From contig NC_134030.1 of assembly GCF_964204645.1 (NCBI RefSeq), positions 11,119,947 through 11,183,946 on the forward strand: a stretch of DNA of 64,000 nt, in the 5' to 3' direction. The notes beneath the pieces are model-generated. The model was not told the DNA's origin. It saw only the letters and a list, made by a program, of their open reading frames with translations, and searched no databases. Made by a program: the position numbers and the translations under genes. The stretch's first letter is position 1, and each line of letters begins with the position of its first letter. The stretch comes from Tubulanus polymorphus (lineage: Eukaryota; Animalia; Nemertea). This document shows, piece after piece, positions 5,070 through 55,853 of this stretch.

Positions 5070-5309
5070 CAGGGGCGGAACCAAGGAGGATATAGGGATG
5101 CGCACCTCCTAAAATACGCTACCCGGAAAAATGGAAAATATTTAACCTATACCAGTCTGAAACAAGTTTGAATGCACTGTTCCGTGCATTTTCAAAATGA
5201 GTTAATGCTTTCCGTAGAGCTTTCTTTGGTGGGCTCCCCTTTCAATCATATGATATGCCCTAGTGTGGGAGTGCACCCCTCCAAGAATCAGACCCTAGAT
5301 CCGCCTCTG
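5070..5309. mobile_element. CAGGGGCGGA-ended MITE (related copies about 17613-18226 and 27433-27564)
   Basis: Starts CAGGGGCGGAACC and ends GATCCGCCTCTG (imperfect TIR); similar ends recur twice in the window. Confidence 0.5.
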
Positions 5310-18200: not shown

Positions 18201-18856
18201 CTTTGAAAATCCGAGTTCCGCTCCTGTATAGAGTCACCTCTATCCCGGGGCTCAACTGTCGATGCATTGCATTCGTTTCAAATCATTTGAGCTATCGAGC
18301 TACCAACTAAACACAGATGTCGACAATATTCATTCCATCTGAATCACACTTTACCGCCCGTTTTACCTTGTTAAGATCGTTTATCGACTAAAAGTACGTA
18401 CGGTATTAGGCTACCGAAATAAGTTCACGTAATGATTCTAACCAGCGAAAGAATAAACAACAATAAAACTGAAATCAATGTAACTAAATCACTCGATAAA
18501 AATTACACCCCATGGCATAATCACCAATTTTACTTCCTGGAAAACACAGCAGATACTTTCTTCTAAGATATTTTTTTTGCTTATGCCCCATTATTTTGAT
18601 TTCTAGCTGCTAACTTACCGGTCATTAGACTATAAAAGTTTGGTATATTTTGCGTCGGGAAGACAGGAACCAGATTTCTCACTACTACACCATGATTCCA
18701 AAAACTTTTAAGGGCATTTAATCCTTTTATTTGTAAATAATCCGACCGGAAACCGTCAATTATCATAACTTGCAATTTATGATACGACTTAGCACCACTA
18801 AGTACAGTCAATAAGATCACAACCGAAATGCCATATTTTCTTATTTGGCTTAGCAT
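6203..18856 (-). CDS. ENPP6-like ectonucleotide pyrophosphatase/phosphodiesterase family protein, 7 exons, about 447 aa, predicted catalytically inactive
   Basis: Exons 18856-18619, 14918-14752, 9073-8908, 8594-8299, 7405-7247, 6596-6506 and 6429-6203 join in frame (1344 nt). Signal peptide, IIDGFR, FPTxxxPNxYSLMTG, WW..GVEPFWVT, ADPGW, GYD, DVYNLMC..PNNGS and a C-terminal hydrophobic tail. Confidence 0.88.
7562..7865. mobile_element. Small MITE in an ENPP intron
   Basis: 12-bp TIR CAATGGGATACC / GGTATCCCATTG, preceded by TA. Confidence 0.5.
9703..11240 (-). mobile_element. Deleted, decayed copy of the CR1/L2-type LINE at 32320-37160 (pieces about 9703-10400 and 11025-11240)
   Basis: 9720-10400 aligns by eye with 32340-33000 (3'UTR and ORF2 end). 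11025-11234 translates to KICFYGIRGVSNIWFENYLQNRKQF..TGVAQDSFLGP, matching the RT at 33500-33680. Confidence 0.85.
10440..11010 (+). mobile_element. 3' fragment of a different LINE inserted in the opposite orientation
   Basis: Translates with breaks to LARFRCS..VETGRW..IPYNNRICRCCNLNEIEDEYHF..CPVY, a typical LINE ORF2 C-terminal Cys/His region. Confidence 0.65.
13890..14097. mobile_element. Solo right end of an IS3EU-like MITE
   Basis: TCTCGCGCGAGA-type subterminal repeats ending ATGGCCCGAATCAGCCACCATA, identical to the 23427 terminus. Confidence 0.6.
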
Positions 18857-32650: not shown

Positions 32651-35598
32651 TCAAGCACAAAGTTGCTTTCTATAATTTCTTAGGAACAGTTTAGAATTTT
32701 CCATGTTTTTTAGATTTTCACTGATGTTATTCCAAAGTAAAGGGCCGGATACTTTTACTGAAAATTTTCTTCTTAGACTATTGAAAGAAAGTGTTTGTAA
32801 ATCTTGACGTCGCCGAGTATTGTGACTGTGGATTTGAAAATTTTGGTTCCAATAATTTTCGAATGATTTCGGTAATTCGGAGTGGACAGATCTGTAGATA
32901 AAAGTACCTAGCTGAAGTTTATTAATATCTTTGAGCTTGAGGATATTAAAAGCTTTGAATAAAGGGTCAGTGTGCGCCAAATAATAGGAATTAGAAATTA
33001 GCCTGATAGCTCTTTTTTGCAATACAATTAATGGCTGAAGTTTATTTTCAAAATTTCGTCCCCAAACTAAGTTACAATACTGGAGGTAAGGATCAATAAG
33101 CGACAAATAAAGGGTACGAAGAGAACTCACTGGCAGCTTATGTCTTACTCTATTAATTATACCAATGCTTCGAGAAACTTTTTTTTCAACTGATTTTATT
33201 TGATCGTCCCAGGTTAAATTTCTGTCAATAAAAACTCCAAGAAAATTTGTGACATTGACTTGTTTGATCTCTATATTGTTAATTGATATTCTCAAGTTAT
33301 GTTTCAATAGTTTACCGAACACCATAAATGACGTCTTCTTTACATTTAATGACAGCTTGTTTGTTTGAAACCAGGTATACAATTTTGATAATTCAATGTT
33401 TACTGTACGTACTAATCTGTCTAAATTAATGTCACTATAAAAGGCATTTGTGTCATCGGCAAACAATATAAGTTTTAACACATTAGAAAATTTAATACAG
33501 TCGTTTACATATAATAAAAAAAGCAAGGGACCTAAAATTGAGCCTTGGGGTACTCCAGTTTTAACGGTACATAACGAGGATTTATAATTTTGAATTTGAA
33601 CAAATTGTTTTCTATTCTTCAAATAGTCTTCAAACCAGTTGTTAGAGATGCCTCTTATTCCATAAAAACATAATTTTCTTAATAAGATTTCGTGATCAAC
33701 GGTGTCAAAGGCTTTTGATAAATCTAAGAATACCCCAATATTTGATTTGTTTTCTTCTAAATTTTGTGAAATTTCATCAGTTATCAATGTTAAGGCCATG
33801 GCAGTTGAATGGTTCTTTCGAAAGCCGAACTGGTTTGGTTGAATGATATGAAACTTGTAACAATATTCGGTTAATCGATTATACACTATCTTTTCGAGAA
33901 TTTTAGAAAAGCAAGGCAGTACGGATATCGGTCTGTAATTATCAAAAGAGTCATTATTGCCAGCTTTATAGAGTGGACGTATTCGCGCTACCTTCAGTTC
34001 AGCCGGCACTATACCGGAATTTAAGCTACAGTTAAATATATGAGTTAGCGGGTATTTTACAGAATCAATTATTTTCTTAACTACTTTTACAGAGAAACCA
34101 TCAGCACCAGCGCCTTTGCTGGGTGAGAAATCATTTACAATCTGACTGATTTCATCAGGGTGGGTCGGGAAAAAGAAAAAGTTTTCATTTACTGGATTTG
34201 TCAGATATTCACTGAAGTGGACACCTGTATCTGGTATTTGATTGGCTAGGTTGCTACCAATATTTACAAAGAAAGAATTAAATTCATTAGCGATATTTTC
34301 ATAGCCGTTTACAACGATACCGTTCCTTTTGAAAGAGCAAGGTAATCTACACCGATCATTAGAAGATTTTCCAATTAGACTGTTTAAGATATTCTATGAT
34401 TTTTTCATGTCGGATTTGGCTGCAAGTAATTTAGTCTCATAATACTTTTTCTCGGCATATTTGAGTGTACGAGACAAGGTACGTTTGTAATTCAAATAAT
34501 TTTTCAAATGTGATCTATTACGCAAAGATTTTCTGTACAAGCGATTTTTGTGTTTAATACATTTCAATAATCCAGATGATAACCACGGTTTATGTAATTT
34601 ATTTTCGTTTATTTTACGGGGAGTTGAAAAAGGAAAACATTCATTATATAATTCCATGAATTTAGTGTTAAATGCGCTGTATGAGAGTTGCGGGTCTGCA
34701 TTACTATAGATATCCGACCAATCAGTGGCCAGAAGAGCTCTATTGAATTTTGAAGTGTTACGTTCACAATAGTTTCTGTTCGAAGTCACCTCTTGGTCAA
34801 TTTTGGGCTCAACGTGATTACAGACAGTAAAAATAGGAAAATGATCCGAAATATCGGTACAAATAATACCCGTACTAAACACATGGCGAATATCGTTACA
34901 AAAAATATTATCTATAAGCGTCGAGGATGTGGGAGTGATTCTTGTGGGTTTATCAACTAATGGAATGAACCCAAATGAAGTCATATTTTCAAAATAGTTA
35001 TCAGTTGGTCTGTGGGCGTTAACTTGTAGTAAATCGATATTGAAATCGCCCATAAGATAGCATACTTTGTCTTCTCTATTAAGTTTCACTAAAAGTGGAA
35101 TTAATTCATTATTAAAGCCATTTATGCTTTGTCCGGGTGGTCGATAGATCAGACCAATTTATTTATTTTTTTCTTTTTCAAGAATCAATTCAATAAATAG
35201 ACATTCAAAAGTATTTCTATCCTCGGATAGATCTGGTCTAAGTTTCACATTAAAACTTTCTTTGAAAAATAGGGCCAAACCTCCTCCCTGACAATTTTTT
35301 CTACACTTAAAAACACTTTTCATACCTGGGAGATTATACAGCCTGCCATTATCATGAAGTTCGCTAGTCCAGGTTTCGGTTAACCCGAAAATAGAAAAGT
35401 CAGTTTTTAAATTGCTCAAAAAATATGAAAATGTATCAAAATTTCTGTTACAACTACGAATGTTTAAAGCACAGATTGAAAAATGTTGCTTTTCAAACTC
35501 TACAGTAGAGTTTACATCAAAGTATTGACATTTGTTATTATTGAAGATGTCGATGATGAATAAGTATAGGGTAGATAATACTCGTTAATAGGTAGCAT
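32651..35598 (-). pseudogene. LINE ORF2 (APE endonuclease + reverse transcriptase) with two in-frame stops and a probable 5' frameshift
   Basis: APE motifs NIRS, LTETW, YRPP, GDFN, SDH; RT motifs YRPIS, QFGFR, FLDLSKAFD, GVPQGSILGP, LFADD. The three ORF pieces are in the same frame, broken by TAA (35159) and TAG (34394). Confidence 0.9.
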
Positions 35599-35600
35599 TA

Positions 35601-37112
35601 TTAGACTGATGTTATCGGTAGATCATCCGGGACTGAAATTCTGTCCTTTTTGGCCACGTGAACAGTTGGGCTAATATCGGATGATGATGTCTGACTTCTG
35701 GTTCGTTTTTTATTCTGATCCGGTGTTAATGCACGAAGAAAGACTTGTGTAAGTTCTTTGGCACCATCGATTCCAATATGGATTCCTGACCTATCAGTTG
35801 AATCAAATAACGACTGGTTAACTGAAAAATTTGGTTGGAATACCAAATCATTGTCTATATAGTTCAAATGATTTTCACTGTCACATAGCTTTCGAAGATA
35901 GTTATTGATCTTTGAGGAAGTGTCATTGTAGGTTAGCGCGGTCTTACTTTTTCCTTTACGCGGTAGTATACTAGATACATTAATTTGAGCGCTGGGAAAT
36001 GTATTTCGAAGGATATTTATCATTTTTGACATATCCAGGATTGTTTGGTCATGATCGTCTTTGTTTCGAGTCATGTCGTTGGTCCCTAGATGGCAGATTA
36101 TCGATTTTATTTTCGCATTTTCAATAGACGGGTCCACTTTCTGGAGAAGTTTATTTACATCATGGGCCGTTGCACCCGAAACGCTGCACACGTGAACGCT
36201 TTCCGGAATATCTGTAAACATCAGGCGAGAGCAGTTCGAGTCACCCATAATAATATGTTTCGGGGGCACAATTGTCGAGCTAGCGGTGCGGCTCTCTGCA
36301 GGTGACATGTCAGTGACGGTAGACTGAGTATGAGTAGGAGTTTTAACTGTGGAATGTGATTTGTCCTCACATGATTGATGATCAGTTATGTCGTCGTCAA
36401 AATTTAGTCTTTTTTCCAACCCCTGTAATATCGGACATTCTGATTTTTTATGCCCTTCCTTACGGCAGTAGAAACATAAAACGCCAGATGGACAATTGGC
36501 TGCTAGATGGTCTGGAGATTTACATTTAAAACAGAGTTTGCGAGTACGCAAGAGACAACGATAATACTGGTGATCCGTTTCACCGCAATACACACACTGC
36601 GTTTTATTATTATCGCAGTAAAGTTGGACTTCAAATCTTCCAAATTTTGAATTAACTGGAATTATACTTTTCACTTTAAGCAATTTAGCATAAATAGAGC
36701 CATTCAAAATATCGGTGTCTTTTATTTTCCCTCTTCTGATACTCCCATTTATTACCTCACCGTATGTCGATAATTGGGAGGCAATGAACGCATCTGATAA
36801 TTCAACTGGTGCATCTTTAATTGTAACGTTCGTAACATCTTGTACATCGTCAGCTTTATCAACTTTTAACGTGCGGTCTCTTATGTTCGGTGGATTTTTT
36901 ATGAAATCCTCAACTGCACTCGTGTCCTTGAACGTAATTCTACACTCACCAGTTTTTGTGATTTGAATCGCACGCACTCGAACTGATTTAGATCCCAGGG
37001 CTGATAGGATATCACTTTCCGTAATCCTTCCACCATAACAAACGACCGTGAGAGGTCTTTTTAGATCCATGTTTAAACTTGCGGCTAACTGAGAATTGAG
37101 GTAAAAATCCAA
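35601..37112 (-). CDS. LINE ORF1: RRM-like region, three CCHC zinc knuckles, SGNH/GDSL esterase domain
   Basis: Knuckles CVYCGETDHQYYRC, CFKCKSPDHLAANC and CFYCRKEGHKKSEC; esterase blocks IIMGDSN, SVSGAT, HLGTND and DRSGIH. The ORF call opens on TTG; first ATG is at about 37070. Confidence 0.88.
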   Translation of the reverse strand: MDFYLNSQLAASLNMDLKRPLTVVCYGGRITESDILSALGSKSVRVRAIQITKTGECRITFKDTSAVEDFIKNPPNIRDRTLKVDKADDVQDVTNVTIKDAPVELSDAFIASQLSTYGEVINGSIRRGKIKDTDILNGSIYAKLLKVKSIIPVNSKFGRFEVQLYCDNNKTQCVYCGETDHQYYRCLLRTRKLCFKCKSPDHLAANCPSGVLCFYCRKEGHKKSECPILQGLEKRLNFDDDITDHQSCEDKSHSTVKTPTHTQSTVTDMSPAESRTASSTIVPPKHIIMGDSNCSRLMFTDIPESVHVCSVSGATAHDVNKLLQKVDPSIENAKIKSIICHLGTNDMTRNKDDHDQTILDMSKMINILRNTFPSAQINVSSILPRKGKSKTALTYNDTSSKINNYLRKLCDSENHLNYIDNDLVFQPNFSVNQSLFDSTDRSGIHIGIDGAKELTQVFLRALTPDQNKKRTRSQTSSSDISPTVHVAKKDRISVPDDLPITSV

Positions 37113-41269: not shown

Positions 41270-41370
41270 AGATTAAAAGAAATCTAAAATCGAGAATTAT
41301 TTATTGAAATAATCTAAAACGTAAGAACATGGCGTTTCGATCTCACACTAGAGACCATCGTCAGGTGTGA
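41270..41370 (-). mobile_element. 3' terminal part of a Penelope-like element with a degenerate hammerhead-ribozyme motif
   Basis: Minus strand CTGACGA-T-GGTCTC-tagtgt-GAGATC-GAAAC followed by AATAAA; collinear with the GIY-YIG remnant on the other side of the Maverick. Confidence 0.6.
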
Positions 41371-41376
41371 GATATT

Positions 41377-41780
41377 AGTAGTATAGTCAGAGGGGGGTTC
41401 TGGCACAGCTAACTTTTGGGCTAACTGTGCTAATGTGAGCTAACTTTGAGCTAATGTAAGCTAACTTTTGAGCTAATCTGAGCTAACTTTTGAGCTAATC
41501 TGAGCTAATGTCGGTTAACATCTGAGCAAACTTTTGAGCTAATCTGAGCTAATGTTGGTTAACATCTGAGCTAATCTGAGCAAACTGTTGAGCTAATGTG
41601 AGCTAATATCGGTTAACATCTGAGCTAATTTGAGCTAATGTCGGTTAACATCTGAGCTAATCTGAGCTAACATTGAGCTAATGTGAGTGAATGAATGTTA
41701 ATACCGAGCTAATGTGAACTAGTTATCGGGCTAATGTCTATGTGTTATATGGAGCTAATGTGGGTTAACTATTGAGTTAG
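41377..41780 (+). repeat. Maverick left TIR (404 bp) made of GAGCTAA / GGTTAAC short repeats
   Basis: Reverse complement of 55444-55847; one mismatch noticed by eye. Confidence 0.95.
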
Positions 41781-42614
41781 CTATTGAGCTAATGTGTGTT
41801 AATGTTGTGCTGATGAGGGTTAACAGCGGGTTGTTTATACTATTTCTGGTATATGAGTAAATTTCTGAAAGTGTTGTGAAAGGGGGTACAGTAAAATCTG
41901 ATAGAACAAAGTATATGTTATAAGTATGGTATGATGATGTAATTATTTCGAGTGTTAATTAAACAGGGGAGACAAAACTATAAGTATAGCAAGATATTTT
42001 TTATTGAATGTGTCTGAAATGAATTCAACAGACAGGTGTGGATGTGATGGTGAATGTAGTTGAATAACAATAGGGGCTAACATGATAGTTGGGATATGCG
42101 AACTCAGATGACCTGTTAATGAGAATACAGAACAATAACACTCCGGTGTAATTTCGAGAGTTCCCACCGACGGTAATGGCATTTTTTCTCTTTATAATCT
42201 TCATTATGAATACTGGGTTCAATGTGATTTATTAGGTTTTGCTTCCGAGAATACTATCATAAATGAATTTATCGTCGGACATCTGTATTGAAACTCCCTG
42301 TTCTTTTCAAAAAGTAATGTGTTCAGAAGGTATTATCTGTTTGTTTTATTCGTTTCTGTTGATGACTGTTTGACTGAATAGATAGTAATATAGATTTTCT
42401 ACTCTGATGACCATCCCGGTGGTAAACCGTGAGAAAGTTTGAATATTCTCTTAACAGGGGGGTAAAACAGACATAGGTGGAGTGACAGTATTTAAAGAAA
42501 CAATGAAGATCAATCACGTGATTTAAAGTAGACCAATGGAATGATTCTGTGGTAACTTAAAAATTACGTTGATTGGTAAATTTTAACATCCTATTGTTGA
42601 TCGAACATTTAAAA

Positions 42615-42758
42615 ATGCCGACTACCGCAGCACGGTCTTTTTCGTTCCAACGCGCCGAAGTATCCAACAACGCAGAACCACGCTATCATCATCATCATCA
42701 TCATCATCGACATTATCGTCACCAAAGGAGACTAAGGAAAGAAAACTCATTTACTAAG
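42615..42758 (+). CDS. Putative 48-codon His/Arg-rich leader exon
   Basis: AAAATG start, MPTTAARSF..HHHHHHHRHYRHQRRLRK..TK, then a consensus donor AAG|GTAAGC; CACGTG and CCAAT boxes upstream. Confidence 0.45.
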
Positions 42759-42901
42759 GTAAGCTACGTATTATTTTCCTTAATTCTACATAATTCTTTT
42801 GTTTAGATATTCTCAATGTGAAATATGTATACTCGTTATCGAAATTTTTGCATTGTATCGAAAAATATTTTACAATTTTTATCAATTTTTTAAGATGAAA
42901 T

Positions 42902-43369
42902 TTACATTCTAATGAAATACTTGCTAACAAATTGTTTAACATAATAATCATTATACTCGTAATCAGTTTTACTAAAACTACTGAATATCTCGGGAAAACA
43001 CATACCGTGTGAGAGAAGAGTTACAAAATATATGCAATAATATCCGCAATTCGTACTAAACAAACTTTGTACTCTAACTCGAGAATAATCCCAGTAATGA
43101 CAGTGTGTATCTAAATAGTTTCTTAATATAATATTATAGAATTGCGGTTGTTGTCCGTAACTATCTAGGAAATAACCTTGTTTATTTGCAAATATTATAA
43201 AACAAATCCAATGTTCTCCGCTCTTATCACTATTTTGAGAGTTTACAATGAAAATACTGGGATACTCAGGAGGTTCGGGTAAACGATCAGCTGCGTAGAC
43301 ACCTTTAAACAATTTGTTCGCACAAGTATCTTCGCGCAAAATATTAATTAATTGATCGGTATACAACAT
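42902..43369 (-). CDS. Adenain-like cysteine maturation protease (155 aa from the ATG at 43369)
   Basis: GEHWI (His), FLDSYG (Asp), VQSLFSTNCGYYC (Gln, Cys); lies directly downstream of the capsid gene. Confidence 0.92.
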   Translation of the reverse strand: MLYTDQLINILREDTCANKLFKGVYAADRLPEPPEYPSIFIVNSQNSDKSGEHWICFIIFANKQGYFLDSYGQQPQFYNIILRNYLDTHCHYWDYSRVRVQSLFSTNCGYYCIYFVTLLSHGMCFPEIFSSFSKTDYEYNDYYVKQFVSKYFIRM

Positions 43370-43373
43370 CTTT

Positions 43374-44693
43374 TTAAAAATCTGTGACAACAGTGCGGTC
43401 TTTTGTAATTTCCAACACTTCATCAAAGTTGGCGTATAATAGTAAATTAATATTTTCTGGTAGAGGTTTTGAAAATTCCAATTCAACGCGAAGGGAACCC
43501 TTTTTACTGATAGCCAGGTCACTGAATCCGAAATCAGGTGTCAGATCGAATGCGGTTAGGAAATATCCGTTAGCATAATCTTTTCTGGTTATTCCAATTG
43601 TCTTATCTTGATATAAAATACCGGTGCCAGTGAACAATGAGAAATATCCTTCACTCAAGTCTTTCGACTCGAAATTTATTGCCGACGCTTCAACTTGCGA
43701 CCCATTGATGGACACCGCAATTCTAGTGATATCATAGTGTTTAAAGTCGAACGGGTTTTTATCGTAACTTCCACTCAGCGATTCGTCCGAGCAGAATCCG
43801 ATAATTATATTCCTCGGTAAATTTCCAATTATCAGATTATCTCTTATAACACTGCGTACTCCACGTGGTATATTCACCGGAAAAATGCTTGTTTTTACAA
43901 AATGGTATTTGGCATTACTAGTAGCCAATGCTTTCTCATGCGCTAACTGAACTGACGGGCTTAGTTGTACTCGTCGCACATTTAATGTAGCGTTTTCAAT
44001 TTTCACTTTGAACTTTACGTCTGGATTCGGGGACATTAAACAAAATGCATCCTTACTTCTGATTAACTTAACTTTAACCGTTACATTCGAGAGAAGTAGT
44101 TTATCTAGTCCGAACGCATCGCTGTGTAATCGAAGTTGCGCTTTTACGAGATTGTTCGGCTTTTTCAGTAAATCATAACGTTCTTTGAGACCCGAGTTAC
44201 AATTCGCGCTTCTAGGATCTGTATCGTTCATACGCCCGGCTTCGTCTTTATATATCATAGCACTTTCCATCCATCCCGGTTTCGTAGATGATTGACAAAA
44301 TATCAAGTTCTCAATAGCGGCTCTAATCGGGTGTAAGTCCATTCCATTACTAATTAATTTGTCGTTGAATCGTACCTCGACGTCACTGAATAGTGACTGA
44401 GCGTAATTAATAAGGGTAGCTACGGGATCATCTGCTTTGTCATTGTTCATCGGACTGCCATCGCCCTTTACAATTTTAAACGTTGCATCTAACCACGTGT
44501 GGTTTAAATCTAGATAATGTTGTGAGTTACCGGTTATAAGAAAATCGATATTTCCGCTATCCGTAATTGTAGCTAACGGTTGATATTTAGCATAATGTGC
44601 GGACTCCATAGTGATATTAGTCATCGGCAGTGAAAAGATGTCCAATTCACTCTTGAGTGCAGGGTGCGAGTCTTTGTGTACTTTCAAACCCAT
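43374..44693 (-). CDS. Major capsid protein (double jelly-roll, Maverick PY)
   Basis: 439 aa; KSELDIFSLP, YLDL, NPFDFKHY, GYFLTAFDLTPD and GSLRVELEF are typical Polinton MCP blocks. Confidence 0.9.
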   Translation of the reverse strand: MGLKVHKDSHPALKSELDIFSLPMTNITMESAHYAKYQPLATITDSGNIDFLITGNSQHYLDLNHTWLDATFKIVKGDGSPMNNDKADDPVATLINYAQSLFSDVEVRFNDKLISNGMDLHPIRAAIENLIFCQSSTKPGWMESAMIYKDEAGRMNDTDPRSANCNSGLKERYDLLKKPNNLVKAQLRLHSDAFGLDKLLLSNVTVKVKLIRSKDAFCLMSPNPDVKFKVKIENATLNVRRVQLSPSVQLAHEKALATSNAKYHFVKTSIFPVNIPRGVRSVIRDNLIIGNLPRNIIIGFCSDESLSGSYDKNPFDFKHYDITRIAVSINGSQVEASAINFESKDLSEGYFSLFTGTGILYQDKTIGITRKDYANGYFLTAFDLTPDFGFSDLAISKKGSLRVELEFSKPLPENINLLLYANFDEVLEITKDRTVVTDF

Positions 44694-44756
44694 GTTATAT
44701 CAGTGTTGATGTTGGCGATAACAATGAAGATGTTAACAATGATAACGATCAGTTAA

Positions 44757-45149
44757 TTAATATGCTTCCAGGCTTTCGATTGTTCCACGTTGACGTTTCA
44801 CCCGACGTCTATTCGACTTCGATTTTACTTTACGTTTTCTCTGATTATTCGGGGCTTTTAATACATTTCGAACGGCTGTTTTACCGTTATTCAATAACGA
44901 TTCTCCTAGATCTCTTCCACCAATGACGTCACCTATTGTGTTGACACCGGCTTTAACTATATGTGGTGCTGCTTTCTTTGCAATTGTCTTAAACAAAGGG
45001 ATCGCTCCCCTGAATAATCCTCCCAGAATAGATCCGATTCCTGCTCCTTTTTGTATCGGTCTACCGTGATAGAAATCATTCCCGCCACCCGCCTGCCGTA
45101 AATAATAATTACAGCAAGCGTCTTGATCTATGATACATTCGGTTTTCAT
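44757..45149 (-). CDS. Small basic Gly-rich virion core / membrane-active protein
   Basis: YYLRQAGGG, QKGAGIGSILGGLFRGAIPLFK amphipathic segment and a Lys/Arg tail; located between the penton and MCP genes. Confidence 0.8.
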   Translation of the reverse strand: MKTECIIDQDACCNYYLRQAGGGNDFYHGRPIQKGAGIGSILGGLFRGAIPLFKTIAKKAAPHIVKAGVNTIGDVIGGRDLGESLLNNGKTAVRNVLKAPNNQRKRKVKSKSNRRRVKRQRGTIESLEAY

Positions 45150-45958
45150 AGTAACAACTTTCGTCTAAAATGTAACACGAGGGATACTTTGCCCCTTTTA
45201 AAGATGGGCGGAGTACCACTGTCCTTAAACATATAGATTTCAATAACGTCCAGTCGATTACTCCTGAGCGGAAGATAATAAGGTCGTCTAAATTCACGAT
45301 CTATAACTGTTTGATTTATATCGTTTACACCTACAATCCTTAACAAAGGTGCGCTATCGTGTCCAACTTGTTGATGTTGAATTAACTCTGAATAGATTAA
45401 GATGTTATGATTATCGGCCATAAGGTCGACCGGTCTAGACGCTATGACCTCGACGTAGCCGAAGTTATCGGATGAACTTGCTTTTCCTATGATTTTAGTT
45501 TCGGTAATATCATCACTAAAAATGTCGGCGTCGACTACATGCATCGAAGGGAAGCCCAACACCCAGGCTAATTCCTTCCTGAACTTAATTTTCGCGTTAG
45601 CGGATAATCTAATCGAAACTCGTTGGCTTATCTCATTATACATTAGTTGTATTTTATTCGCTGCCGGTGATCGCGTTATAACCGAGTTCACATGTTCTAT
45701 CAATGTTTCGATATTTCTATACACACCGCCTGGCACGCTATACGCGTCACTCCATTGTCCATCACCAGAGTCCACATAAAATTCTCCAGTAATTACGTTG
45801 TCGAATTCGCAATTGAAATTTATGTGAACTAACGCGACTTCCCAATTACCTTCTAGGTTAATCGTCCCTCTCAATTTAACTTTAAACTTTTCTTGAGAGT
45901 TTCCTGGAAATTCATCCACGCTTCCATCGCTCAATAATGTTAGATAAAAGTCATGCAT
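45146..45958 (-). CDS. Minor capsid protein (penton, Maverick PX)
   Basis: FYLTLLSD..FPGN..F..L.GNWEVAL N-terminus and IYSELI..VG..APLLR..LHFR C-terminus. Confidence 0.88.
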   Translation of the reverse strand: MHDFYLTLLSDGSVDEFPGNSQEKFKVKLRGTINLEGNWEVALVHINFNCEFDNVITGEFYVDSGDGQWSDAYSVPGGVYRNIETLIEHVNSVITRSPAANKIQLMYNEISQRVSIRLSANAKIKFRKELAWVLGFPSMHVVDADIFSDDITETKIIGKASSSDNFGYVEVIASRPVDLMADNHNILIYSELIQHQQVGHDSAPLLRIVGVNDINQTVIDREFRRPYYLPLRSNRLDVIEIYMFKDSGTPPIFKRGKVSLVLHFRRKLLL

Positions 45959-47045
45959 TCTTCTTCTTTAGTTCTCGTGCCGGAATCCACGAATTGAATT
46001 TCGTCGGGTATCCCAACCACTTCACGAGCAACTCGCGGTTTCTTCCTCGACCGCGTCTTCTTATAATCTTCTCCACTCGGTAAACATCGTCGTTTTTAAT
46101 TACTTTTTGTAATTCGTGACGATAGAATTGTCCCTGAACCTGCTCACCCATTTGATCTATAACGTTATATGTCGGTGGGTTGTGCGGGATCTGTTTTGAA
46201 ACCGAGAATATTTCGTGCGACCATCCGGGTAAATAACCCTTGTCGAAATCTTTCTTATATCTTGCGATTCTGACGGTATCCCCAATAGAAAACTTGTACT
46301 GTTTGTTCATAAGAGACTCTTTTCCGTATAGGTTTTCCCACACCAACTTCTCATTATTTTCACTAACTTGAGACGGGTTCATTTTTATCGACCTATGATA
46401 CGAATTGTTGTAGGCATTTATAATCTTAGGAAGAACATCTATATAGGTTTTCGTCTTGTACGCGGTCATATAGCGGAATAATCTTCCCTTTAACGTTCTG
46501 ATGAATCGCTCGACAATACTACATTTCACTGTATCCTCGCTCGTAAAGTGATGAATGTTATACTTCTTTGTTATCTTACTAAAATATGCATTCAAAAATT
46601 CTTTGCCCTTATCACTTTGAACTTTTTTCATACGACTTTTAATCGCTATACCTTCGAATGCGCTACTAACTTCTCCACCATTTTTCGACTTTAGGGGTAT
46701 GGCGTAAGCGAATTTAGAAAAAACGTCGATCGAAACCAGTAGATATTTAATTCCTTTATTATACTTAGATATATTCGATAAATCACACAAATCGATTTGA
46801 TGCTGTTGATTGATACCGGATACTATTGTTCTATTCCTCTTGAAACGCACGCGAGTAGGACGATGAAGCGTATATGCCTCTTGCGATTTCAGAAAGTCTC
46901 TAATAACGTCTATACCAATTTCATTTCCGGACAGCTTCGCGGCGCGATGTAATGCATTCAAACCACCGAATGCGCTTGGGTTTTCTGGGTTGTAGTACAG
47001 GTTGTTCAGTATCTTTTTCAAGTCCGAGGTCAGGCGAGTCGACAT
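45951..47045 (-). CDS. int: Retroviral-like DDE integrase with C-terminal chromodomain
   Basis: LYYNP, QIDL (D), IDVFSK, QSDKGKEF (D), IVERFIRT (E), YNNSYHRSIKMNP; chromodomain YRVEKII..LVKWLGY..FNSWIP. Confidence 0.96.
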   Translation of the reverse strand: MSTRLTSDLKKILNNLYYNPENPSAFGGLNALHRAAKLSGNEIGIDVIRDFLKSQEAYTLHRPTRVRFKRNRTIVSGINQQHQIDLCDLSNISKYNKGIKYLLVSIDVFSKFAYAIPLKSKNGGEVSSAFEGIAIKSRMKKVQSDKGKEFLNAYFSKITKKYNIHHFTSEDTVKCSIVERFIRTLKGRLFRYMTAYKTKTYIDVLPKIINAYNNSYHRSIKMNPSQVSENNEKLVWENLYGKESLMNKQYKFSIGDTVRIARYKKDFDKGYLPGWSHEIFSVSKQIPHNPPTYNVIDQMGEQVQGQFYRHELQKVIKNDDVYRVEKIIRRRGRGRNRELLVKWLGYPTKFNSWIPARELKKKNA

Positions 47046-47142
47046 CGTCTTTCACTTTTGACTGTTGCACACAACACGAAATGTTGAATTTTTTACAATT
47101 AATGTTAATGAGCGATTGCGGTAAACAATCAGACTTCATCAT
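46921..47142 (-). CDS. Small Cys-containing ORF (73 aa) overlapping the integrase 5' end
   Basis: ATG 14 nt after the TBP-like stop; fills the only gap in the gene array; overlaps int by 125 nt in another frame. Confidence 0.4.
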   Translation of the reverse strand: MMKSDCLPQSLININCKKFNISCCVQQSKVKDDVDSPDLGLEKDTEQPVLQPRKPKRIRWFECITSRREAVRK

Positions 47143-47155
47143 TTCGTTATCCCGA

Positions 47156-47692
47156 TTATTCACACATATGCATATTGAACAACACATGCGGCAACACCGA
47201 AATCATCTGCTTTAAAGATTTACACCCGCTAATAATCACACATCCCTTATGTTGTATTATAAATGTAACATTTCCACAGCGAGATATGAGGCTGGGGGTG
47301 ATCTCCGGATCATATCGCCCACCTAATAACGTGTGTAGTTGGGATAAGTTAACTTTAATTCCCGTTCTCGCAACACCTGTCATTGTTTGAATTTTAAATT
47401 CTGTCAATCTAACGGCGGCAGTGGTATTAATCTTTTGTATCAATCTAGCAAATCGTCGCACACTGGTATAACTCTCGCTGGATGACTTTGCTCCGTTACA
47501 TACTATTCTCCCGCTTGCGAATAATAGACACGTGCCCCTGATGCGCTTATTCCTAAGAATTAATGCGTTAAATTTACGAGGGTTGTACACTACGTTTGAC
47601 ATTGTCCTAGACAACTCCTCTAGATTGAGCTTACAATTAAGATTTGCAGTCGCTACTACATTAACAACGTCGATCATTTCTGATGTTACCAT
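47156..47692 (-). CDS. TBP: TATA-box-binding-protein-like protein (divergent TBP core, 178 aa)
   Basis: Two TBP repeats: NVVATANL, YNPRKFNALILR, LLFASGRIVCNGAKS, RRFARLIQK; then FKIQTMTG, YDPEITPSLISR, VIISGCKS. Intronless and lacking an N-terminal extension. Confidence 0.9.
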   Translation of the reverse strand: MVTSEMIDVVNVVATANLNCKLNLEELSRTMSNVVYNPRKFNALILRNKRIRGTCLLFASGRIVCNGAKSSSESYTSVRRFARLIQKINTTAAVRLTEFKIQTMTGVARTGIKVNLSQLHTLLGGRYDPEITPSLISRCGNVTFIIQHKGCVIISGCKSLKQMISVLPHVLFNMHMCE

Positions 47693-47958
47693 TACGAGAA
47701 CTAGATACTAAATGAACTTGGATAAAATGAGATAGAATCTAAATTTTCTCCATTCATTCTCTTTCAGATATAGATCACTCGACGACAACGACGACGACGA
47801 CGTATATTAGAATTTCAAACTTACATTAGATTCATCAAAACGTATCAAGACAATCGAATAAAAAAGGTAATCCGATGATAAATTAGCTTTATCATTATTA
47901 TTATTATTACTATTATTATTATCATTATATTCTACAAATACACTAAACAAAAATATGT

Positions 47959-48696
47959 TCACATATAAATCCAATTTTCGAAATCTATATCTTTAGAATT
48001 TTTAGATGGCGTAGTCATCCTCCTCCTCTTCGTCATCTTTGCTTCGAATTCATTCTTAACGTTCGGGCGATTGTTAATTAATTTATTTCTAACGAATTTA
48101 TTCGGGATAAACGTCTGTGGAACGGACATATCTTGTAATGCCTTGATGAAATCGTCGAGTCCGTTCATTTGTTGAGACTTGTTAGGTGTCATGCAGAGAT
48201 TGATTAAATCGACGATATTACTATCATCTCTTTTGACACCTTTTACTATTATCTCCCCCTTATCGGTCCATGACAATATTTCGGAATATCGCTTTATTCG
48301 CTCCAATAACATTTCCGATTTCTTTCTATAGTTTTTCGGTACGTTATTCAAAATTTCCTGGTCGAATTCACTTTTAGTTTCGGTAGTTCGTTTTAAATCA
48401 CGATCGGTATTCAATGCACTGCTTTTACTTACTATGTTAGAATTAGTGATCGTCGACTCCTTTGAATGTTTTTCGATTTGCATTAGTTTATTCAACGCGT
48501 CGTTATACATCTTCAATTTCACGTCGTCCTTCACATCATTATCCATTTGAAGGATATCGGACATTTGACTTTCTATATTTTTCACGCGATTCGTTTCACC
48601 ACTCGAAGATTCTCGCTTGTCATCGGTTGATGTGATTTTTTCAATCATGGGAATAAATGATCCCGGAACAACGTAAAGTTTTTCAACGTTCTTCAT
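47959..48696 (-). CDS. Conserved Maverick protein of unknown function (PZ-like)
   Basis: 245 aa; K.KMYNDAL, LSWTDKGEI, SNIVDLI, G..DF..AL...VP..FI.N and a C-terminal W, as recalled from Maverick accessory ORFs. Confidence 0.7.
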   Translation of the reverse strand: MKNVEKLYVVPGSFIPMIEKITSTDDKRESSSGETNRVKNIESQMSDILQMDNDVKDDVKLKMYNDALNKLMQIEKHSKESTITNSNIVSKSSALNTDRDLKRTTETKSEFDQEILNNVPKNYRKKSEMLLERIKRYSEILSWTDKGEIIVKGVKRDDSNIVDLINLCMTPNKSQQMNGLDDFIKALQDMSVPQTFIPNKFVRNKLINNRPNVKNEFEAKMTKRRRMTTPSKNSKDIDFENWIYM

Positions 48697-49019
48697 TCCA
48701 TAAACCCGAGTAGTCGACCGATTCCTTTCAGTATCAGTCCAAGGAAACCGCCTTTTTGCACGATTAATGATTTTTTCGATTTAATCGGTACTCGTCTATT
48801 AGCGAGAATTCGAATCCACTTCTTATGTCGCTTCAATTTCTTTTTATCCGATTCGCTGTGTTTGATATTCCCTCTTAATGAATTTATACAGACTTCGCAA
48901 ATAACTTTCACTAATCTGTTCGACGATGATGACAGAATCGCATCGCGCATATTTTTCTTTCCATCGCATAAAAGTCTTAAGTGAGGAGCGAATTCCTTCA
49001 AATGCAAGTGGTTCCTCAT
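48693..49019 (-). CDS. Small basic conserved Maverick protein (PW/core-protein-like)
   Basis: 108 aa; ICEVCINSLRGNI, Lys-rich stretch, C-terminal QKGGFLGLIL; ATGA overlap with the next gene. Confidence 0.75.
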   Translation of the reverse strand: MRNHLHLKEFAPHLRLLCDGKKNMRDAILSSSSNRLVKVICEVCINSLRGNIKHSESDKKKLKRHKKWIRILANRRVPIKSKKSLIVQKGGFLGLILKGIGRLLGFME

Positions 49020-49052
49020 TTTATCAATTGACGATGTTCGCGTGAAATTACA

Positions 49053-49700
49053 TTATTTAATACTTTTTATCTTATAATAAATATGATATCCCTCGCTGGG
49101 AAATATTCGTGTGCGTAATCTCCATTTGTCCGACGTTTGTGGTTTGAAATCACAAAATAGATATCCACGCGGTGAAATTGAGGTCGCATCTGTAAACGCC
49201 TCCTCGAGCGATTTACCTAACCCGGACTGCATCGCTAAAGTCTTTACTTGGAGTCGATCCCTCGGATGCTTGAATAGAACTATATAATGCGTGTTTAACG
49301 ATATTGTCCGAAAATGAGGTCCTCTCGGGAAAAGGGTTTGCGATATTAGAATCACTTGAAGTTTTCTATGATGACTACCACGTGTAAAAATGGTCTCCAA
49401 TAATTTGGGGTCGCACTCGTTCAATACATCATCCAAAATAAGTAGTTTTGTTGTCTCTGAACCTGACAAACTTTCGTACAATTCCTCTGTTAAACCCTTA
49501 ATAAACTCAACTCCCTCTGTATCGTGATAGATTTCCTGATCTTCGGCGTACACCCAAACTATACGATCGGGAAATGGATCGAACATTCTTTCTTCAATCA
49601 ATCTTTTAGTAAAGACTGTCTTCCCGATACCAGTCATTCCATTGATAATCGACGTGAACCATCCTTGCAATTTAGTCGGCGGTAAATCAGCTATTTCCAT
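49053..49700 (-). CDS. A32/FtsK-like DNA packaging ATPase
   Basis: Walker A GMTGIGKT, Walker B LLILDD, RGSHHRK, ISQ, RTISLNTHY. Confidence 0.95.
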   Translation of the reverse strand: MEIADLPPTKLQGWFTSIINGMTGIGKTVFTKRLIEERMFDPFPDRIVWVYAEDQEIYHDTEGVEFIKGLTEELYESLSGSETTKLLILDDVLNECDPKLLETIFTRGSHHRKLQVILISQTLFPRGPHFRTISLNTHYIVLFKHPRDRLQVKTLAMQSGLGKSLEEAFTDATSISPRGYLFCDFKPQTSDKWRLRTRIFPSEGYHIYYKIKSIK

Positions 49701-49822
49701 TGCCCCCTTTTACCACAGATTAACAGAATCAAAATTAACAGCGATCTATCCAAAACACGTTCATTTTAAAGATTATTATCCACACATTATATTTATTTCT
49801 GTCTTCCTTTCTTTTTCTTTAG

Positions 49823-50361
49823 ATGGCACAGAAACAAGTATCAGAACGACTCAGCTTAGGACCAGTCGCCCTACCCAAGCGGTATGGGTGCACAATGTGC
49901 GAGCTGGTGTTCGCACACGCCAGCTCGAGATCCCGGCACATTAACCGGGTGCACAAAAAGAGTAAACCGCTTTGTGCCAAATGCGGGGAGGGGTTTAGCA
50001 CGACGGCCTACCGGGACAGGCACCAATCACGTTGTGCGAGACCCCTCCCAATCCCAGCGGCACGACGGCGACTGGTCCTTGAAGCACCGGCACCGCCAGC
50101 AGCAGCAGTAGGGGCGCCGCCAGCAGCAGCAGTGCCAGCAGCAGCAGTAGGGGCGCCGCCAGCAGCATCAGTGCCAGCAGCAGCAGTGCCAGCAGCAGTA
50201 TTGCCAGCAGCAGCAGTAGGGGCGCCACCAGCAGCATCAGTGCCAGCAGCAGTATTGCCAGCAGCAGCAGTAGGGGCCCCACCAGCAGCAGCAGCAGTGC
50301 CAGCAGCAGTGCCAGCAGTAGTAGGGGCACCACCAGCAGCAGCAGGGGCACCACCAGCAGC

Positions 50362-50399
<38 letters not shown>

Positions 50400-53300
50400 G
50401 GGCACCACTGGAATGGGAATGGGAAGAGTTACCGGATCTTGATGAGGAAACTCTTGCCCTCATCGGGATCCGGCAAGGTGGCGCCTTAGAGGGGTATGTA
50501 CGAAAATACGAGTTCCCATCCACTGAAAACAACAAGTTTGATTTAATTAAATTTTATAACGATATCAAACCGCATCTCATCCGACTGCTTAAAGATGATT
50601 TAAGTAGATTGGGTGGGATAAAATGGTTTACCAGCATTCATATAATTTTAGAAAAAGATATCGATGGTGTCCATCAACAAAGGACTGTGTATTTTACTAG
50701 CCACACTCGAAGTGCTTTCAATGGTGAACAATTTGACGAGCTCTTGGATCAGGCTAAGAATAAAATGATCCAATTATTGGAACAATACAATACTGAGGGT
50801 ACTGGTTGGAGGTTTGATTATGTCGAAGTGTTCGATCTACACGTCGGCATATATGAACCATTAGGTGGAGGTTCGTATATACCCTCTCCTCGTGTAATCG
50901 TTTCACGAGGAGGGGTTATAAATATCCAAAATTTCGACAATATGTGCTTTCTTTGGTCTATACTCGCCCACCTCCACCGAATGGACACGAACCCCCAACG
51001 AGTATCTAAGTATTTACGGTACAGAGACGAATTGAATATGAACAATATCAATTATCCAGTAACCGTAGAACAAATACCCATTTTCGAACAGCAAAACGAT
51101 ATATCAGTTAACGTATTTGCCTATGAGGATGGAAATATTTTTGTTCGTCGTTTGAGTGATAATCCACGCGCAAATCATGTTAATTTATTATTACTAGTTG
51201 ATAACGATAACGCCCATTATTGTTTGATAAATGACCTTAGTAAATTCCTTTTCCATCTAAACAAAAAGAAAGCCAAATGTTTTTGGTGTTTTAAGTGCAT
51301 GCACTCTTTTTTATCGCAAGAAAATCTTGATGTTCATACTCGGTACTGTATTCAAGGAATACAAAAGACAATCATGCCACCGACAGATGAGAATGTCTTG
51401 AAATTTGTTAATGTCACAAAACAGCACAAACTGCCATATGTGATATATGCTGACTTCGAAATGTTTTTAGAACCGATTGAGGGGTGTAAATTGAACCAGA
51501 ATCAATCTTGGACATATCGTTATCAGGTTCATGAACCGTGTGGATTTTGTTTTAAAGTCGTTGGCCCTGACACCAGACATTCCCATCCGACAGTCCTTTA
51601 TAGAGGAGACGATGTTATGAAGAAATTCTTAACATCCCTCCTCGAAAAAGCAGAGGAAATATTACAGGAATACAAAAATCCTCAACCTTTGGTTATGAAC
51701 GACGTCGATGAAACACACTTCAAATCAACTGATATTTGTCATATATGTAAGGAAACCATAAATGGTAAGAAATGTCGGGATCACGATCATATAACCGGCA
51801 AATACAGAGGCCCAGCTTGTAATTCATGTAATCTGAGTTATAGGGTTCCTAATTTCATACCTGTGATATTTCATAACTTGAAAAGTTATGACAGTCATGA
51901 AATTATTAGATCATTGGGCTTGGTTGAATTTAGGGGGTATAGAATTTCAGTGATCCCGACGAACACTGAAAAGTTTATCGGATTTACACTTGGTCCCCTA
52001 CGCTTCATCGACTCGTTGGCATTTCTCAATACCTCTCTCAGTACTCTTACGGAAAATTTGGTCAATTCGGGTAGAGAGAAATTCATTCATTTAAACTCGG
52101 AGTTCCCCGCCAATAAACTTGATCTTTTATTACGTAAAGGTGTTTACCCATACGACTACATGACAGGTTCGGAGAAATTTAATGAGACAAGTCTCCCTCC
52201 TAAGGAGGCATTTACCAACACCCTGACGAACACTGAAATTTCGGTAGATGACTACAAACATGCACAGAATATTTGGTCGCAGTTTAACATGGCAAACATG
52301 GGCGAGTATCACGATCTCTATCTTAGAACCGACGTATTGCTACTTTCAGATATTTTCGAGGAATTCCGCAAGTTCGCTCATAAGAGCTACGGATTAGATC
52401 CTTGTCATTACTACACTCTACCCGGCTACTCATGGGATGCCTGCTTGAAACTGACAAAAGTCGAACTTCAATTGTTCACTGAAGTCGATATGTATTTGTT
52501 CATAGAACAGGGGATACGCGGCGGAATATCTGTTATTACCCATCGATATTTCGAGGCTAATAACAAGTATTTCGCCGATTACGACGAGGCCAAGGAGTCA
52601 TCTTATATCATGTATTTAGATGCTAATAATCTGTATGGGTGGGCAATGTCTCAGGCATTGCCTGTTGGTGAATTTAGGTGGTTAGAAACAGAAAACGATC
52701 CCCTTTGGCCCGACGCTCAGGATATTTTAACGATGACGGACGACGCCCATTTCGGCATGATACTCGAAGTGGACCTTGAATACGGTGCCGAGTTACACGA
52801 TCTACATAACGATTTACCGTTAGCTCCGGAGCGCATGTTAGTCAACGAAGATTTAATGTTATCTCCGTATCAAAAGCTTCTATTTCAGACTTTGAAACTA
52901 TCGTCCAGCAAGATACACAAGCTTATCCCTAATCTTTACAATAAAACTCGGTATATTGTTCATTATAGGAATTTGAGGCTTTACATGAAACTTGGTATGA
53001 AATTAACAAAGATTCATCGTGTTCTCCATTTTCGACAATCAGCCTGGATGTCACCGTACATTGCTTTGAATACCGAATTCCGAAAAAATGCGAAATCCAA
53101 TTTTGAGAAAGATATGTACAAATTACTGAATAATGCAAGTTTTGGCAAGACAATGGAGAACATTAGGAATCGAATCAACTACCAAATTATTAACGAACCG
53201 GGGAAATTGAGAAAAGCTCTAGCGAAGCCATCTACGATTTCATGGAACATTATTTCGGAGAATGTTGTGGGGGTAAAAAAACAGCAGATTTCGATCAAGT

Positions 53301-53926
53301 TGGATAAGCCTGTGTATCTTGGCTTTTCAATTTTAGACATAAGCAAAACGTTAATGTATGATTTTCATTATAACACCATCAAGGCAGGATACGGGGATAA
53401 CGCTAAACTTCTTTTTACAGATACGGATAGTTTAACGTACGCTATTCGCAGCAACGATTTGTACACGGATATGGCGGGGATTTCCGACCAGTTCGACTTT
53501 TCAGCCTATCCCACCGGCCATCCTTTATTCTCGGACAAAAATAAGAAAGTACTAGGCAAATTTAAGGATGAGACCAATTCTTTTCCCGTTAAAGTGTTCT
53601 GCGGTTTACGGAGTAAGATGTATTCAATGACATATCTTTCTCCGGATAACAACGGAACACTTGTGGAAAAGAAAACTGCAAAAGGTGTTGCGAAGTACGT
53701 CGTTAAGCAGTCCGTATCCCATAATAACTACGTTGATTGCTTGCGTAATCAATCACGTATGATGGCTAACATGCGGTCTATCCGGAGCTTCAATCATAAG
53801 TTACATTCAGTTAATTTAAATAAAGTCGGATTATCACCATACGACGACAAACGTTATATACTAGATGATGGTGTAAGCACATATGCTTATGGTCATCATA
53901 AAATTCCGGAGATAAATCATCATTAA
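49823..53926 (+). CDS. polB: Protein-primed family B DNA polymerase with N-terminal zinc fingers, Ala/Pro linker, terminal-protein and OTU-like regions, and an endonuclease VII-like insert
   Basis: Exo motifs YADFE, FHNLKSYD, YLRTDV; Pol motifs YLDANNLYG, KLLNNASFGK, FTDTDS; HNH-type CHIC..DHDHITGKYRGPACNSCN; uninterrupted 1367 aa. Confidence 0.97.
50085..50408 (+). repeat. Coding GCA-rich minisatellite (Ala/Pro/Val linker in pPolB)
   Basis: Recurrent GGGGCGCCGCCAGCAGCA / GTGCCAGCAGCA units and a (GCA)n run. Confidence 0.9.
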
Positions 53927-54376
53927 AAGAACAAGTCGTTATACTTAATATATATTTGCATATCTTTATTTATTCATAGTTATAAACATTGATTTATTTA
54001 CACTCACTTATACATGCGTTTATGTTTTCAGTTTTACTTTAAACTATTTAACTAATATATATATTTATTTATTTATCTTATCTATTTATTTAAGATTATA
54101 TGAAAGTTGGTAAACCATTGGTTTAATATCGTTATAAGTGTTTTCTATATTTCTTTTTATTTCAGGGATGGGATCTAACTCGTACCCCCTCTAAGCGCAC
54201 CTTTTCCCGTTTTTTTTTTTTTCTTCCTTTTCTACTTTTTTATGCCAATTTCCCTATAATTCTTTTTTAAAATAAATAAAGAAAAAACCAGCATTTGATT
54301 ATTAACATAATTCATGACTTTAGTTTTTGATATTTATCTATATATGGATTGAGGATACAGGAGATACATATATTCA

Positions 54377-55227
54377 TTAATCATCGATTTGGAATACAGG
54401 ATGAGGATTACAGTAAACACACTGGAGAGCACCCATCTGATTCTGATGATCATCATTGAACATACACGCTTTCATCCCAACGAGTTCAGGTTCCAAATCA
54501 ACGAAAGAAATATTCATCAGTTTCTCCCACTGTTTTTCAGATAGTTCTATCCCGGTTTTCGTATGAACTCGTTGTTCCGTTGCAGCTATATAACAAAAAT
54601 ATCTAATGTCGATTATAACCTTATTGAAACGTTTGAACACGGTCACGTATCGGTTCCTACCGACGTGTAATCGAAAATCCTCTATGATATTATTGTTATT
54701 GTTGCTTTCATTAAACGAATTGATGGCGGAATTTATGGAATCTCTATGCCAGTCGAGATTAGCCCATTCTTGCAGGTGTAGGCTAATGCCGCGTTTCGTT
54801 GGAAATAATCGAAGGTCATCACTGAGTTCATAAGTTCGTATGTCAACACGTTTAACATCCTGCCACTCGCTGACACACGCAAACACTAAATTGCCCAGAT
54901 AATGACGTTTCACATCCGCTTTCGCATAGACGTATTCTTCTTTAGACTCACTCAGTTTTATATCCGTTTGTACACAAGCATTCTCTTTAACAACCGTATC
55001 TATGACAAAAGAAAAGATAATATGGTTACATTACAAGTGAAACAATAAATAACTCAAAGGAGGAGAGGATGTTTTACAAACAAACAAATTAATTACACAT
55101 ACATACCAGGCTTAGCAGCGTTAATATCTAGCTTTAAATTCTTGAAATTCAGTCTTCGAGGCCTCTTTTTTGGAGCATCAGGTTCAGACATGTTTCGTTT
55201 CAACACGGGAGTTGTGTGCGTATCCAT
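54377..55227 (-). CDS. Two-exon gene for a tandem PC4 (p15/Sub1)-like ssDNA-binding protein, about 247 aa
   Basis: Exon 1 55227-55107 (NLS-like PKKRPRR), GT-AG intron 55106-55000, exon 2 54999-54377 in frame. Two PC4 repeats: VSEWQDVKRVDIRTY..PTKRGISL..EW and YVTV..KVIIDIRYF..TKTGIELSEKQW. Confidence 0.85.
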
Positions 55228-55267
55228 GATCAACTCAACGAATGAAATCACCTTTGGAGAACACACG

Positions 55268-55289
55268 TTATATACCCCTCATGACGTCA
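55268..55289 (-). promoter_or_regulatory. TATA box plus CRE/ATF site upstream of the PC4-like gene
   Basis: Minus-strand TATATAA at 55274-55268, about 40 nt before the ATG, and a perfect TGACGTCA at 55282-55289. Confidence 0.6.
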
Positions 55290-55443
55290 GATATTTTTCA
55301 GAACGAGGATCGTAATCATCGAAACAATTGATAATTTGCATATGTTTATATTCATCCAGATCTAACCATATTCAAATGATCTCGTTTATAAATTTCACAC
55401 ACACCAGCTCAATAGATTACCATAAAAACCGGTAACTAAATAC

Positions 55444-55847
55444 CTAACTCAATAGTTAACCCACATTAGCTCCATATAACACATAGACATTAGCCCGATA
55501 ACTAGTTCACATTAGCTCGGTATTAACATTCATTCACTCACATTAGCTCAATGTTAGCTCAGATTAGCTCAGATGTTAACCGACATTAGCTCAAATTAGC
55601 TCAGATGTTAACCGATATTAGCTCAGATTAGCTCAACAGTTTGCTCAGATTAGCTCAGATGTTAACCAACATTAGCTCAGATTAGCTCAAAAGTTTGCTC
55701 AGATGTTAACCGACATTAGCTCAGATTAGCTCAAAAGTTAGCTCAGATTAGCTCAAAAGTTAGCTTACATTAGCTCAAAGTTAGCTCACATTAGCACAGT
55801 TAGCCCAAAAGTTAGCTGTGCCAGAACCCCCCTCTGACTATACTACT
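55444..55847 (-). repeat. Maverick right TIR (404 bp)
   Basis: Ends CTGACTATACTACT followed by the TSD GATATT. Confidence 0.95.
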
Positions 55848-55853
55848 GATATT

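Follow-up and report, generated by a model that had tools for sequence, protein, structure and literature searches.

A possible spliced route to the polymerase gene of a Maverick element in the nemertean Tubulanus polymorphus

How is a polymerase gene expressed when it stands head to head with a tightly packed block of virion genes? The question is raised by a 64,000-nucleotide stretch of the genome of the nemertean Tubulanus polymorphus (contig NC_134030.1, positions 11,119,947 to 11,183,946; hereafter the window), which carries a Maverick/adintovirus, intact and 14,471 bp long, at window positions 41377–55847. Nine genes run leftward from 49700 to 42902, namely the ATPase, a 108-aa and a 245-aa open reading frame (ORF), a TBP-like gene, the integrase, the likely minor capsid gene, a 130-aa ORF, the major capsid gene and the protease, while the protein-primed family B polymerase gene, pPolB, runs rightward from 49823. 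An earlier note on this DNA proposed a 7-kb splice to pPolB from a leader exon at the left end, resembling adenovirus E2B, within a plus-strand unit whose intron is antisense to the whole virion block. The signals behind this proposal are real, and the splicing it suggests is plausible and partly corroborated by our sequence analysis; we put at roughly 45% the probability that a plus-strand unit starting at the left end is spliced through to pPolB. The core ORFs are all continuous in the window, and the pPolB leader is a prediction.

The pPolB start resembles a splice acceptor. Its ATG at 49823 lies directly behind a pyrimidine tract and AG (TCTTCCTTTCTTTTTCTTTAG|ATG), across a 122-bp gap (49701–49822, plus strand) from the divergent ATPase ATG at 49700, just as the earlier note had described. 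Splice sites were scored with a generic matrix of splice-site frequencies, which is not host-trained and is used for ranking only. The AG at 49822 ranks first among the 693 plus-strand AGs of the element, with those at 54165 and 47767 taking ranks 2–3. At an acceptor threshold of 6.5, fixed after the scores were seen, the plus strand has three acceptors, where block shuffles average 0.46 and one in 150 produced as many as three; the minus strand of the element has none. Shuffling gap by gap (1000 times each) gave p values of 0.010 for 49822, 0.001 for 47767 and 0.036 for 54165; an AG at 42806, also listed in the earlier note, is present and weak (p 0.295). The 122-bp gap further contains an acceptor AG at 49718 and TTTAAAG at 49765, and holds no credible plus-strand donor (best score -6.6).

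The context of the ATG is consistent with splicing as well. A purine occupies position -3 in 10 of the 10 other genes, against 42–49% of all ATGs, and pPolB, with T, is the only core gene lacking it; in this count the protease is scored at its second ATG, by likeness to the protease of the related locus L092, and its first ATG has T. Joining to either candidate donor, 42758 or 47866, would place A at -3 of the pPolB ATG.

The predicted leader exon occupies 42615–42758 (plus strand). Its 144 nt encode 48 His/Arg-rich codons, with A at -3, and end in a phase-0 donor (AAG|GTAAGC) that is in frame with 49823, as the earlier note had it; a direct splice would remove an intron of 7,064 nt (42759–49822). 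The donor at 42759 tops the 778 plus-strand GTs of the element, and its score of 7.0 falls among those of four host donors inferred by eye (4.4 to 8.9). Upstream, the sequence at 42489–42614 (plus strand) is a candidate promoter, with TTTAAAG at 42491 and 42522, CACGTG at 42515, CCAAT at 42533 and ATTGG at 42572. The CACGTG and CCAAT boxes that the earlier note had cited are there, but they are weak evidence because the element's plus strand has 5 and 21 copies of them, respectively. A minus-strand ORF of 42 aa over the leader (42622–42750) was ranked lower, having T at -3 and no Pfam match. We also observed that TCTGTGGTAA occurs in the left-end promoter at 42547–42556 (plus) and again just upstream of the ATPase at 49709–49718 (minus); these two sites hold the element's only copies of TGTGGTAA, which may be a shared regulatory word.

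Between the two ends lies a predicted middle or terminal exon at 47768–47866 (plus strand), with the strong acceptor at 47767, a weaker AG at 47773, AATAAA at 47857 and a moderate phase-0 donor (AAG|GTAATC; shuffle p 0.028). The 99-nt form that starts at 47768 meets a stop at codon 2, and the 93-nt form made by the 47773 AG is open and Arg-rich. Plus-strand AATAAA is absent from 41377 to 47857, and this void of 6,480 nt is the longest on either strand of the window (the next is 4,177). Antisense to the six genes from the protease to the TBP-like gene, synonymous-codon shuffles predict 4.4 AATAAA words where there are none (p 0.006), and 7.6 of AATAAA and ATTAAA together where there is one (p 0.001), for a split point that was picked after the void was seen, a mark against the test, and that falls at the 47767 acceptor. 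No such deficit is present in L092, whose block is co-oriented (3 against 4.3 expected), and L068 and L060 are too GC-rich for the comparison.

If the left-end unit exists, host transcription would begin near 42600 at the left-end promoter, on the plus strand, and the donor at 42758 would mostly be joined to the first strong acceptor, 47767. The RNA would then end at the AATAAA at 47857, giving a short product, or be spliced onward from 47866 to 49823; skipping of the middle exon would give the direct 7,064-nt splice. The polymerase would be translated from its own ATG, with a 49-codon frame lying upstream, or, alternatively, as an N-terminal fusion by way of the direct splice or the AG at 47773. 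A possible terminal exon at 54166–54276 (plus strand; strong acceptor at 54165, AATAAA at 54271) may serve as an alternative last exon after pPolB, with its AATAAA 105 nt past the acceptor; a good donor is absent near the end of pPolB (best 2.3).

The proposal that a spliced unit on the plus strand runs antisense to the virion genes thus gains support from the AATAAA void, the -3 rule, an intron-requiring gene at the right end and the predicted spliced pPolB leaders of relatives, the last two of which are described below. That support seems best for a transcript to 47768–47860 and less so for one to pPolB: the best-supported product of the left promoter would stop or pause at 47768–47866, with pPolB one splice beyond. 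We put the odds of a spliced left-end RNA reaching at least 47768 slightly above even. The single 7,064-nt splice is in frame and joins top-ranked sites, but the middle exon competes with it and pPolB is coding without need of a leader, and we regard this direct route as rather unlikely; a path that includes the middle exon, or competes with it, appears at least as likely as a single intron.

The middle exon may also be read differently, with the acceptor at 49822 used from a nearer first exon and a promoter inside the virion block, for instance from the donor at 47866 across an intron of 1,956 nt. Of the plus-strand donors listed from the leader to pPolB, the GT at 47867 is the sole one in a non-coding gap; it is in phase 0 and would supply the A at -3. 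However, the exon's own strong acceptor (p 0.001) marks 47768–47866 as internal, and the AATAAA void extends to the left end, leaving this arrangement unlikely in our view.

An AG adjoining an ATG is also typical of a trans-splice site, and 49822 could receive a host spliced leader; trans-splicing occurs in several animal groups (PMC7986045). Virion genes in tandem would be the likeliest beneficiaries, yet 9 of 9 are without an acceptor before the ATG (best scores -9.8 to 1.0), and cis-splicing accounts for the PC4-like gene at the right end and for L092, so that trans-splicing seems highly improbable. The stops and starts of these nine minus-strand genes (42902–49700) overlap, with no minus-strand acceptors before their ATGs.

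Several observations weigh against splicing into pPolB. The ORF has its own ATG and a full N-terminus, and among the 30 best homologues 13 have no more than 10 residues ahead of the first zinc finger, in ORF calls that are blind to splicing; a coding leader is therefore not needed. Among relatives, a pyrimidine stands at -3 in 9 of 33 long-ORF pPolB genes, and a strong acceptor lies at the first pPolB ATG in only 3 of 47, which is the chance level. Four plus-strand AATAAA words, from 47857 to 49500, stand ahead of pPolB; the deficit ends at the middle exon, the last three genes (1.7 kb) having 3 against 1.3 expected, and over the whole virion block it gives p 0.12, or 0.049 with ATTAAA. Taken alone, the leader donor is at chance level across the element (p 0.38) and gives p 0.07 inside the left gap. 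Within the proposed intron, 38 AGs match or beat the weakest host-like acceptor, and antisense donors and acceptors are not depleted across the virion block. Searches with the leader peptide gave no homologue, and it is unlike the leader of L092. A head-to-head ATPase/pPolB layout was found in no relative among 102 loci, the window pPolB lies outside the group of spliced-leader loci in the polymerase tree, and the PC4 homologues of L070 and L092 possess their own ATG.

The completeness of the ORF and the four AATAAA words also speak for a local promoter that pPolB and the ATPase would share in the 122-bp gap, with the pyrimidine tract as a short 5' untranslated region or initiator. The TTTAAAG at 49765 sits 53–58 nt ahead of the pPolB ATG and 65–70 nt ahead of the ATPase ATG and is a plausible two-way core promoter, a further point against splicing; several unspliced relatives have TTTAAA-like words ahead of the ATG (by eye), and the ATPase block requires a promoter in the gap regardless. 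Under this local promoter, the left-end exon would be a separate small gene ending at the 47768 exon or at one starting at 42807, the latter by a possible 48-nt intron (42759–42806, plus strand) that adds four codons and then a stop; the score of the 42806 AG lies between the extremes of five host acceptors (-0.9 to 5.3) that were assigned by eye from the reading frames of two host genes. Against the local promoter stand the AG that abuts an ATG with T at -3 and the first rank and low shuffle p of 49822. We consider the local promoter, together with the separate small gene, the main alternative, though a less likely one. A more radical reading takes the signals as unused chance products of T-rich gaps: the matrix is generic, the thresholds are after the fact, the donor is at chance level, and the AG at 49718 overlaps the ATPase start and resembles a T-rich by-product. 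The rarity of three such acceptors in composition-preserving shuffles counts against it, as do the AATAAA void and the PC4 intron, neither of which depends on the matrix, and we judge chance very unlikely.

The intron-requiring gene at the right end carries tandem PC4 domains. Its 217-codon minus-strand frame has no in-frame ATG before these domains, so the gene requires an intron, and splice scoring predicts one of 107 nt (GT-AG, 55000–55106) between a 121-nt exon 1 (55107–55227), downstream of TATATAA and TGACGTCA words, and a 623-nt exon 2 (54377–54999; Pfam PC4, E 1.5e-17). The exons join in frame to encode 247 aa, and the intron stands out from local shuffles (donor p 0.027, acceptor p 0.011). 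The best match (P0121) is a 246-aa RefSeq model of a nemertean, whose N-terminus is weakly like exon 1 (E 0.078). The arrangement appears to mirror the left end, with a promoter near the terminal inverted repeat (TIR), a short basic first exon and a donor. ATG-based ORF callers overlook this two-exon gene (54377–55227). In another locus, L052 (2950–3600, minus strand), a PC4 homologue has by eye an acceptor-like tract just before its PC4 domains and lacks a nearby in-frame ATG.

Relatives provide further cases of predicted pPolB splicing, all read from DNA. L092, a complete 12.3-kb element with matching gene order and a PC4 gene at its far end, has a pPolB of four predicted exons (581–623, 1117–1176, 1328–1646 and 2102–5558), open throughout, starting 304 nt from the TIR and predicted to require three introns. 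L055 and L063/L065 have partly resolved donor-acceptor chains with small Cys-rich exons ahead of pPolB, and the pPolB ORF is truncated in 14 of 47 loci, 5 of them with a good acceptor. As predicted for the window element, pPolB of L092, L055 and L063/L065 starts in small exons near the left TIR, but their leaders are coding and required and their introns are below 1 kb. Their last acceptor lies within conserved sequence, and these loci make up a clade of their own. In a midpoint-rooted FastTree tree of 81 polymerase cores, made after exclusion of duplicates and of loci covering <560 residues, these loci cluster with support of 0.996 and the window pPolB falls in another group with weak support (0.81). 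The window layout likely arose through inversion, because relatives always keep pPolB and the ATPase on one strand (13 of 13 loci with both among the 102 examined, some of them near duplicates): an ancestor may have carried the TIR, leader, pPolB and virion block in that order on one strand, and an inversion would then have placed the virion block between leader and pPolB. Viral contigs scanned with the ATPase gave no relative, and a capsid scan gave L092 only.

The element itself is a member of the Maverick/adintovirus group. Its TIRs of ~415 bp lie at 41377–41791, where the left one begins with AGTAGT, and at 55433–55847, where the right one ends with ACTACT, and are flanked by a 6-bp target-site duplication, GATATT (41371–41376 and 55848–55853); the two repeats differ at four positions up to 41791, which indicates a young insertion. 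A chromodomain integrase, pPolB and a double jelly-roll capsid are further hallmarks. On the minus strand lie an adenain-like protease (42902–43369; weak Peptidase_C5, E 0.0011), the double jelly-roll major capsid gene (43374–44693; structure model matching capsid proteins of iridovirus, Sputnik, PBCV-1 and mavirus, Foldseek E 1e-13), a conserved 130-aa ORF (44757–45149; homologues in L029, L068 and L092) and a gene at 45146–45958 with homologues at the matching place in the same three loci, which we take to be a minor capsid gene. These are followed by the rve integrase with chromodomain (45951–47045, by domain search), the TBP-like accessory gene (47156–47692; Pfam TBP, E 1.4e-33), the conserved 245-aa and 108-aa ORFs (47959–49019, from ORF calls and homology) and the packaging ATPase (49053–49700; weak Pox_A32 and AAA matches, 50% identity to the L092 ATPase). 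The ATPase and protease matches are under the curated Pfam cut-offs; L068 and L092 hold homologues of both genes and of the minor capsid candidate, in matching order. The TBP-like gene found only six distant homologues (28–39% identity) from 43 candidates, and with the PC4-like gene it gives the element two transcription-factor-like proteins.

The pPolB protein (49823–53926, plus strand) has 1367 aa, with N-terminal C2H2-type fingers, an Ala/Pro repeat and an endonuclease VII domain. It has 147 homologues at E <= 1e-20, several with PF03175, and itself matches PF02945 only; it is likely of the Beta class, given the classification in PMC8502044 and the absent PF03175 match. The annotated protein in the window (P0001) begins at ORF residue 518 and is uninformative on the 5' end of pPolB. 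Sequencing runs X1–X3 behave as DNA, covering host introns with no joints at inferred host exon ends among those listed; the lack of a listed joint at 42758, 47767 or 49822 has no bearing on splicing, and the X1 and X2 contigs that run unbroken over 49822 are likewise silent on it. In X3, the loose end of one contig, before 49829, is by eye unlike either donor exon. Joints from 41370 to 55848 in X1 and X2 bypass the element and one target copy, reflecting either an empty allele or further copies of the surrounding repeat. Elsewhere in the window we presume a glutamate-transporter-like gene (700–2550, plus), a G-protein-coupled-receptor-like ORF (3109–4080, plus), an ectonucleotide-phosphodiesterase-like gene (6200–18930, minus) and a long interspersed nuclear element with stop-broken reverse transcriptase frames (32651–37070, minus).

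The element shares TIRs, AGTAGT ends, the 6-bp duplication, pPolB, integrase and the major capsid gene with known Mavericks/Polintons (PMC8097293; PMC8502044), along with candidate ATPase, protease and minor capsid genes. In PMC8097293, core genes are described as intronless, introns are not reported for intact vertebrate Mavericks, and pPolB is grouped with the ATPase in one module on the same strand. In contrast, the window element has a predicted leader, head-to-head pPolB and ATPase genes, and TBP-like and intron-bearing PC4-like accessory genes, and the L092 pPolB is predicted to need introns. Nematode Mavericks carry intron-bearing cargo (wasp, krma) beside core genes called intronless (bioRxiv 10.1101/2022.07.12.499685). 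They too have spliced genes in a terminal accessory region, but their cargo is captured host genes; in the present element it is a core gene whose predicted splice spans other members of the core set. In the literature searched, which covers few subscription papers and Repbase entries, neither splicing of a pPolB leader nor a transcript map of an animal Maverick turned up. Maverick pPolB splicing is not mentioned in the available parts of PMC10748475, PMC11296320 and PMC8363768, nor in those of 10.1101/2024.03.25.586562, 10.1101/2024.03.18.585575 and 10.1101/2024.01.15.575659.

In adenovirus, the E2 and late units lie antisense to each other. E2A and E2B have common 5' exons and different 3' ends, and E2B RNAs are rare (PMC11304566, PMC7851563). 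The predicted likeness lies in a polymerase RNA opposite late genes, common 5' exons, a short polyadenylated product and a rarer long one. Adenovirus E2B makes separate terminal-protein and polymerase mRNAs, whereas the Maverick pPolB is one 1367-aa ORF with its own ATG and complete N-terminus. The mastadenovirus E2B start codon comes from a small upstream exon, in which pPolB again differs. The short product here would be a small basic peptide and not a DNA-binding protein, and the PC4-like gene stands as a unit of its own. Layout and signals for the comparison drawn in the earlier note are present; the element would work like E2 yet lack two features of E2B, and the likeness is probably convergent. 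We consider it possible but doubtful that the element independently built an E2-like early unit, in which the virion block was inverted into the first intron of the polymerase gene, the composite exon at 47768–47866 chooses between polyadenylation and splicing, and the antisense RNA silences the capsid genes until replication.

Little is mapped of how Mavericks express their tightly packed genes, and descriptions of their core genes mention no introns. For annotation there is a warning: the PC4-like gene escapes ORF callers, which also shorten pPolB in relatives such as L092. If the local promoter is correct, a modest finding is left, of introns in an accessory gene and in the polymerase genes of relatives. 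If the left-end unit is real, host splicing would be central to the control of Maverick replication, with a testable early/late switch and a parallel to adenovirus E2.

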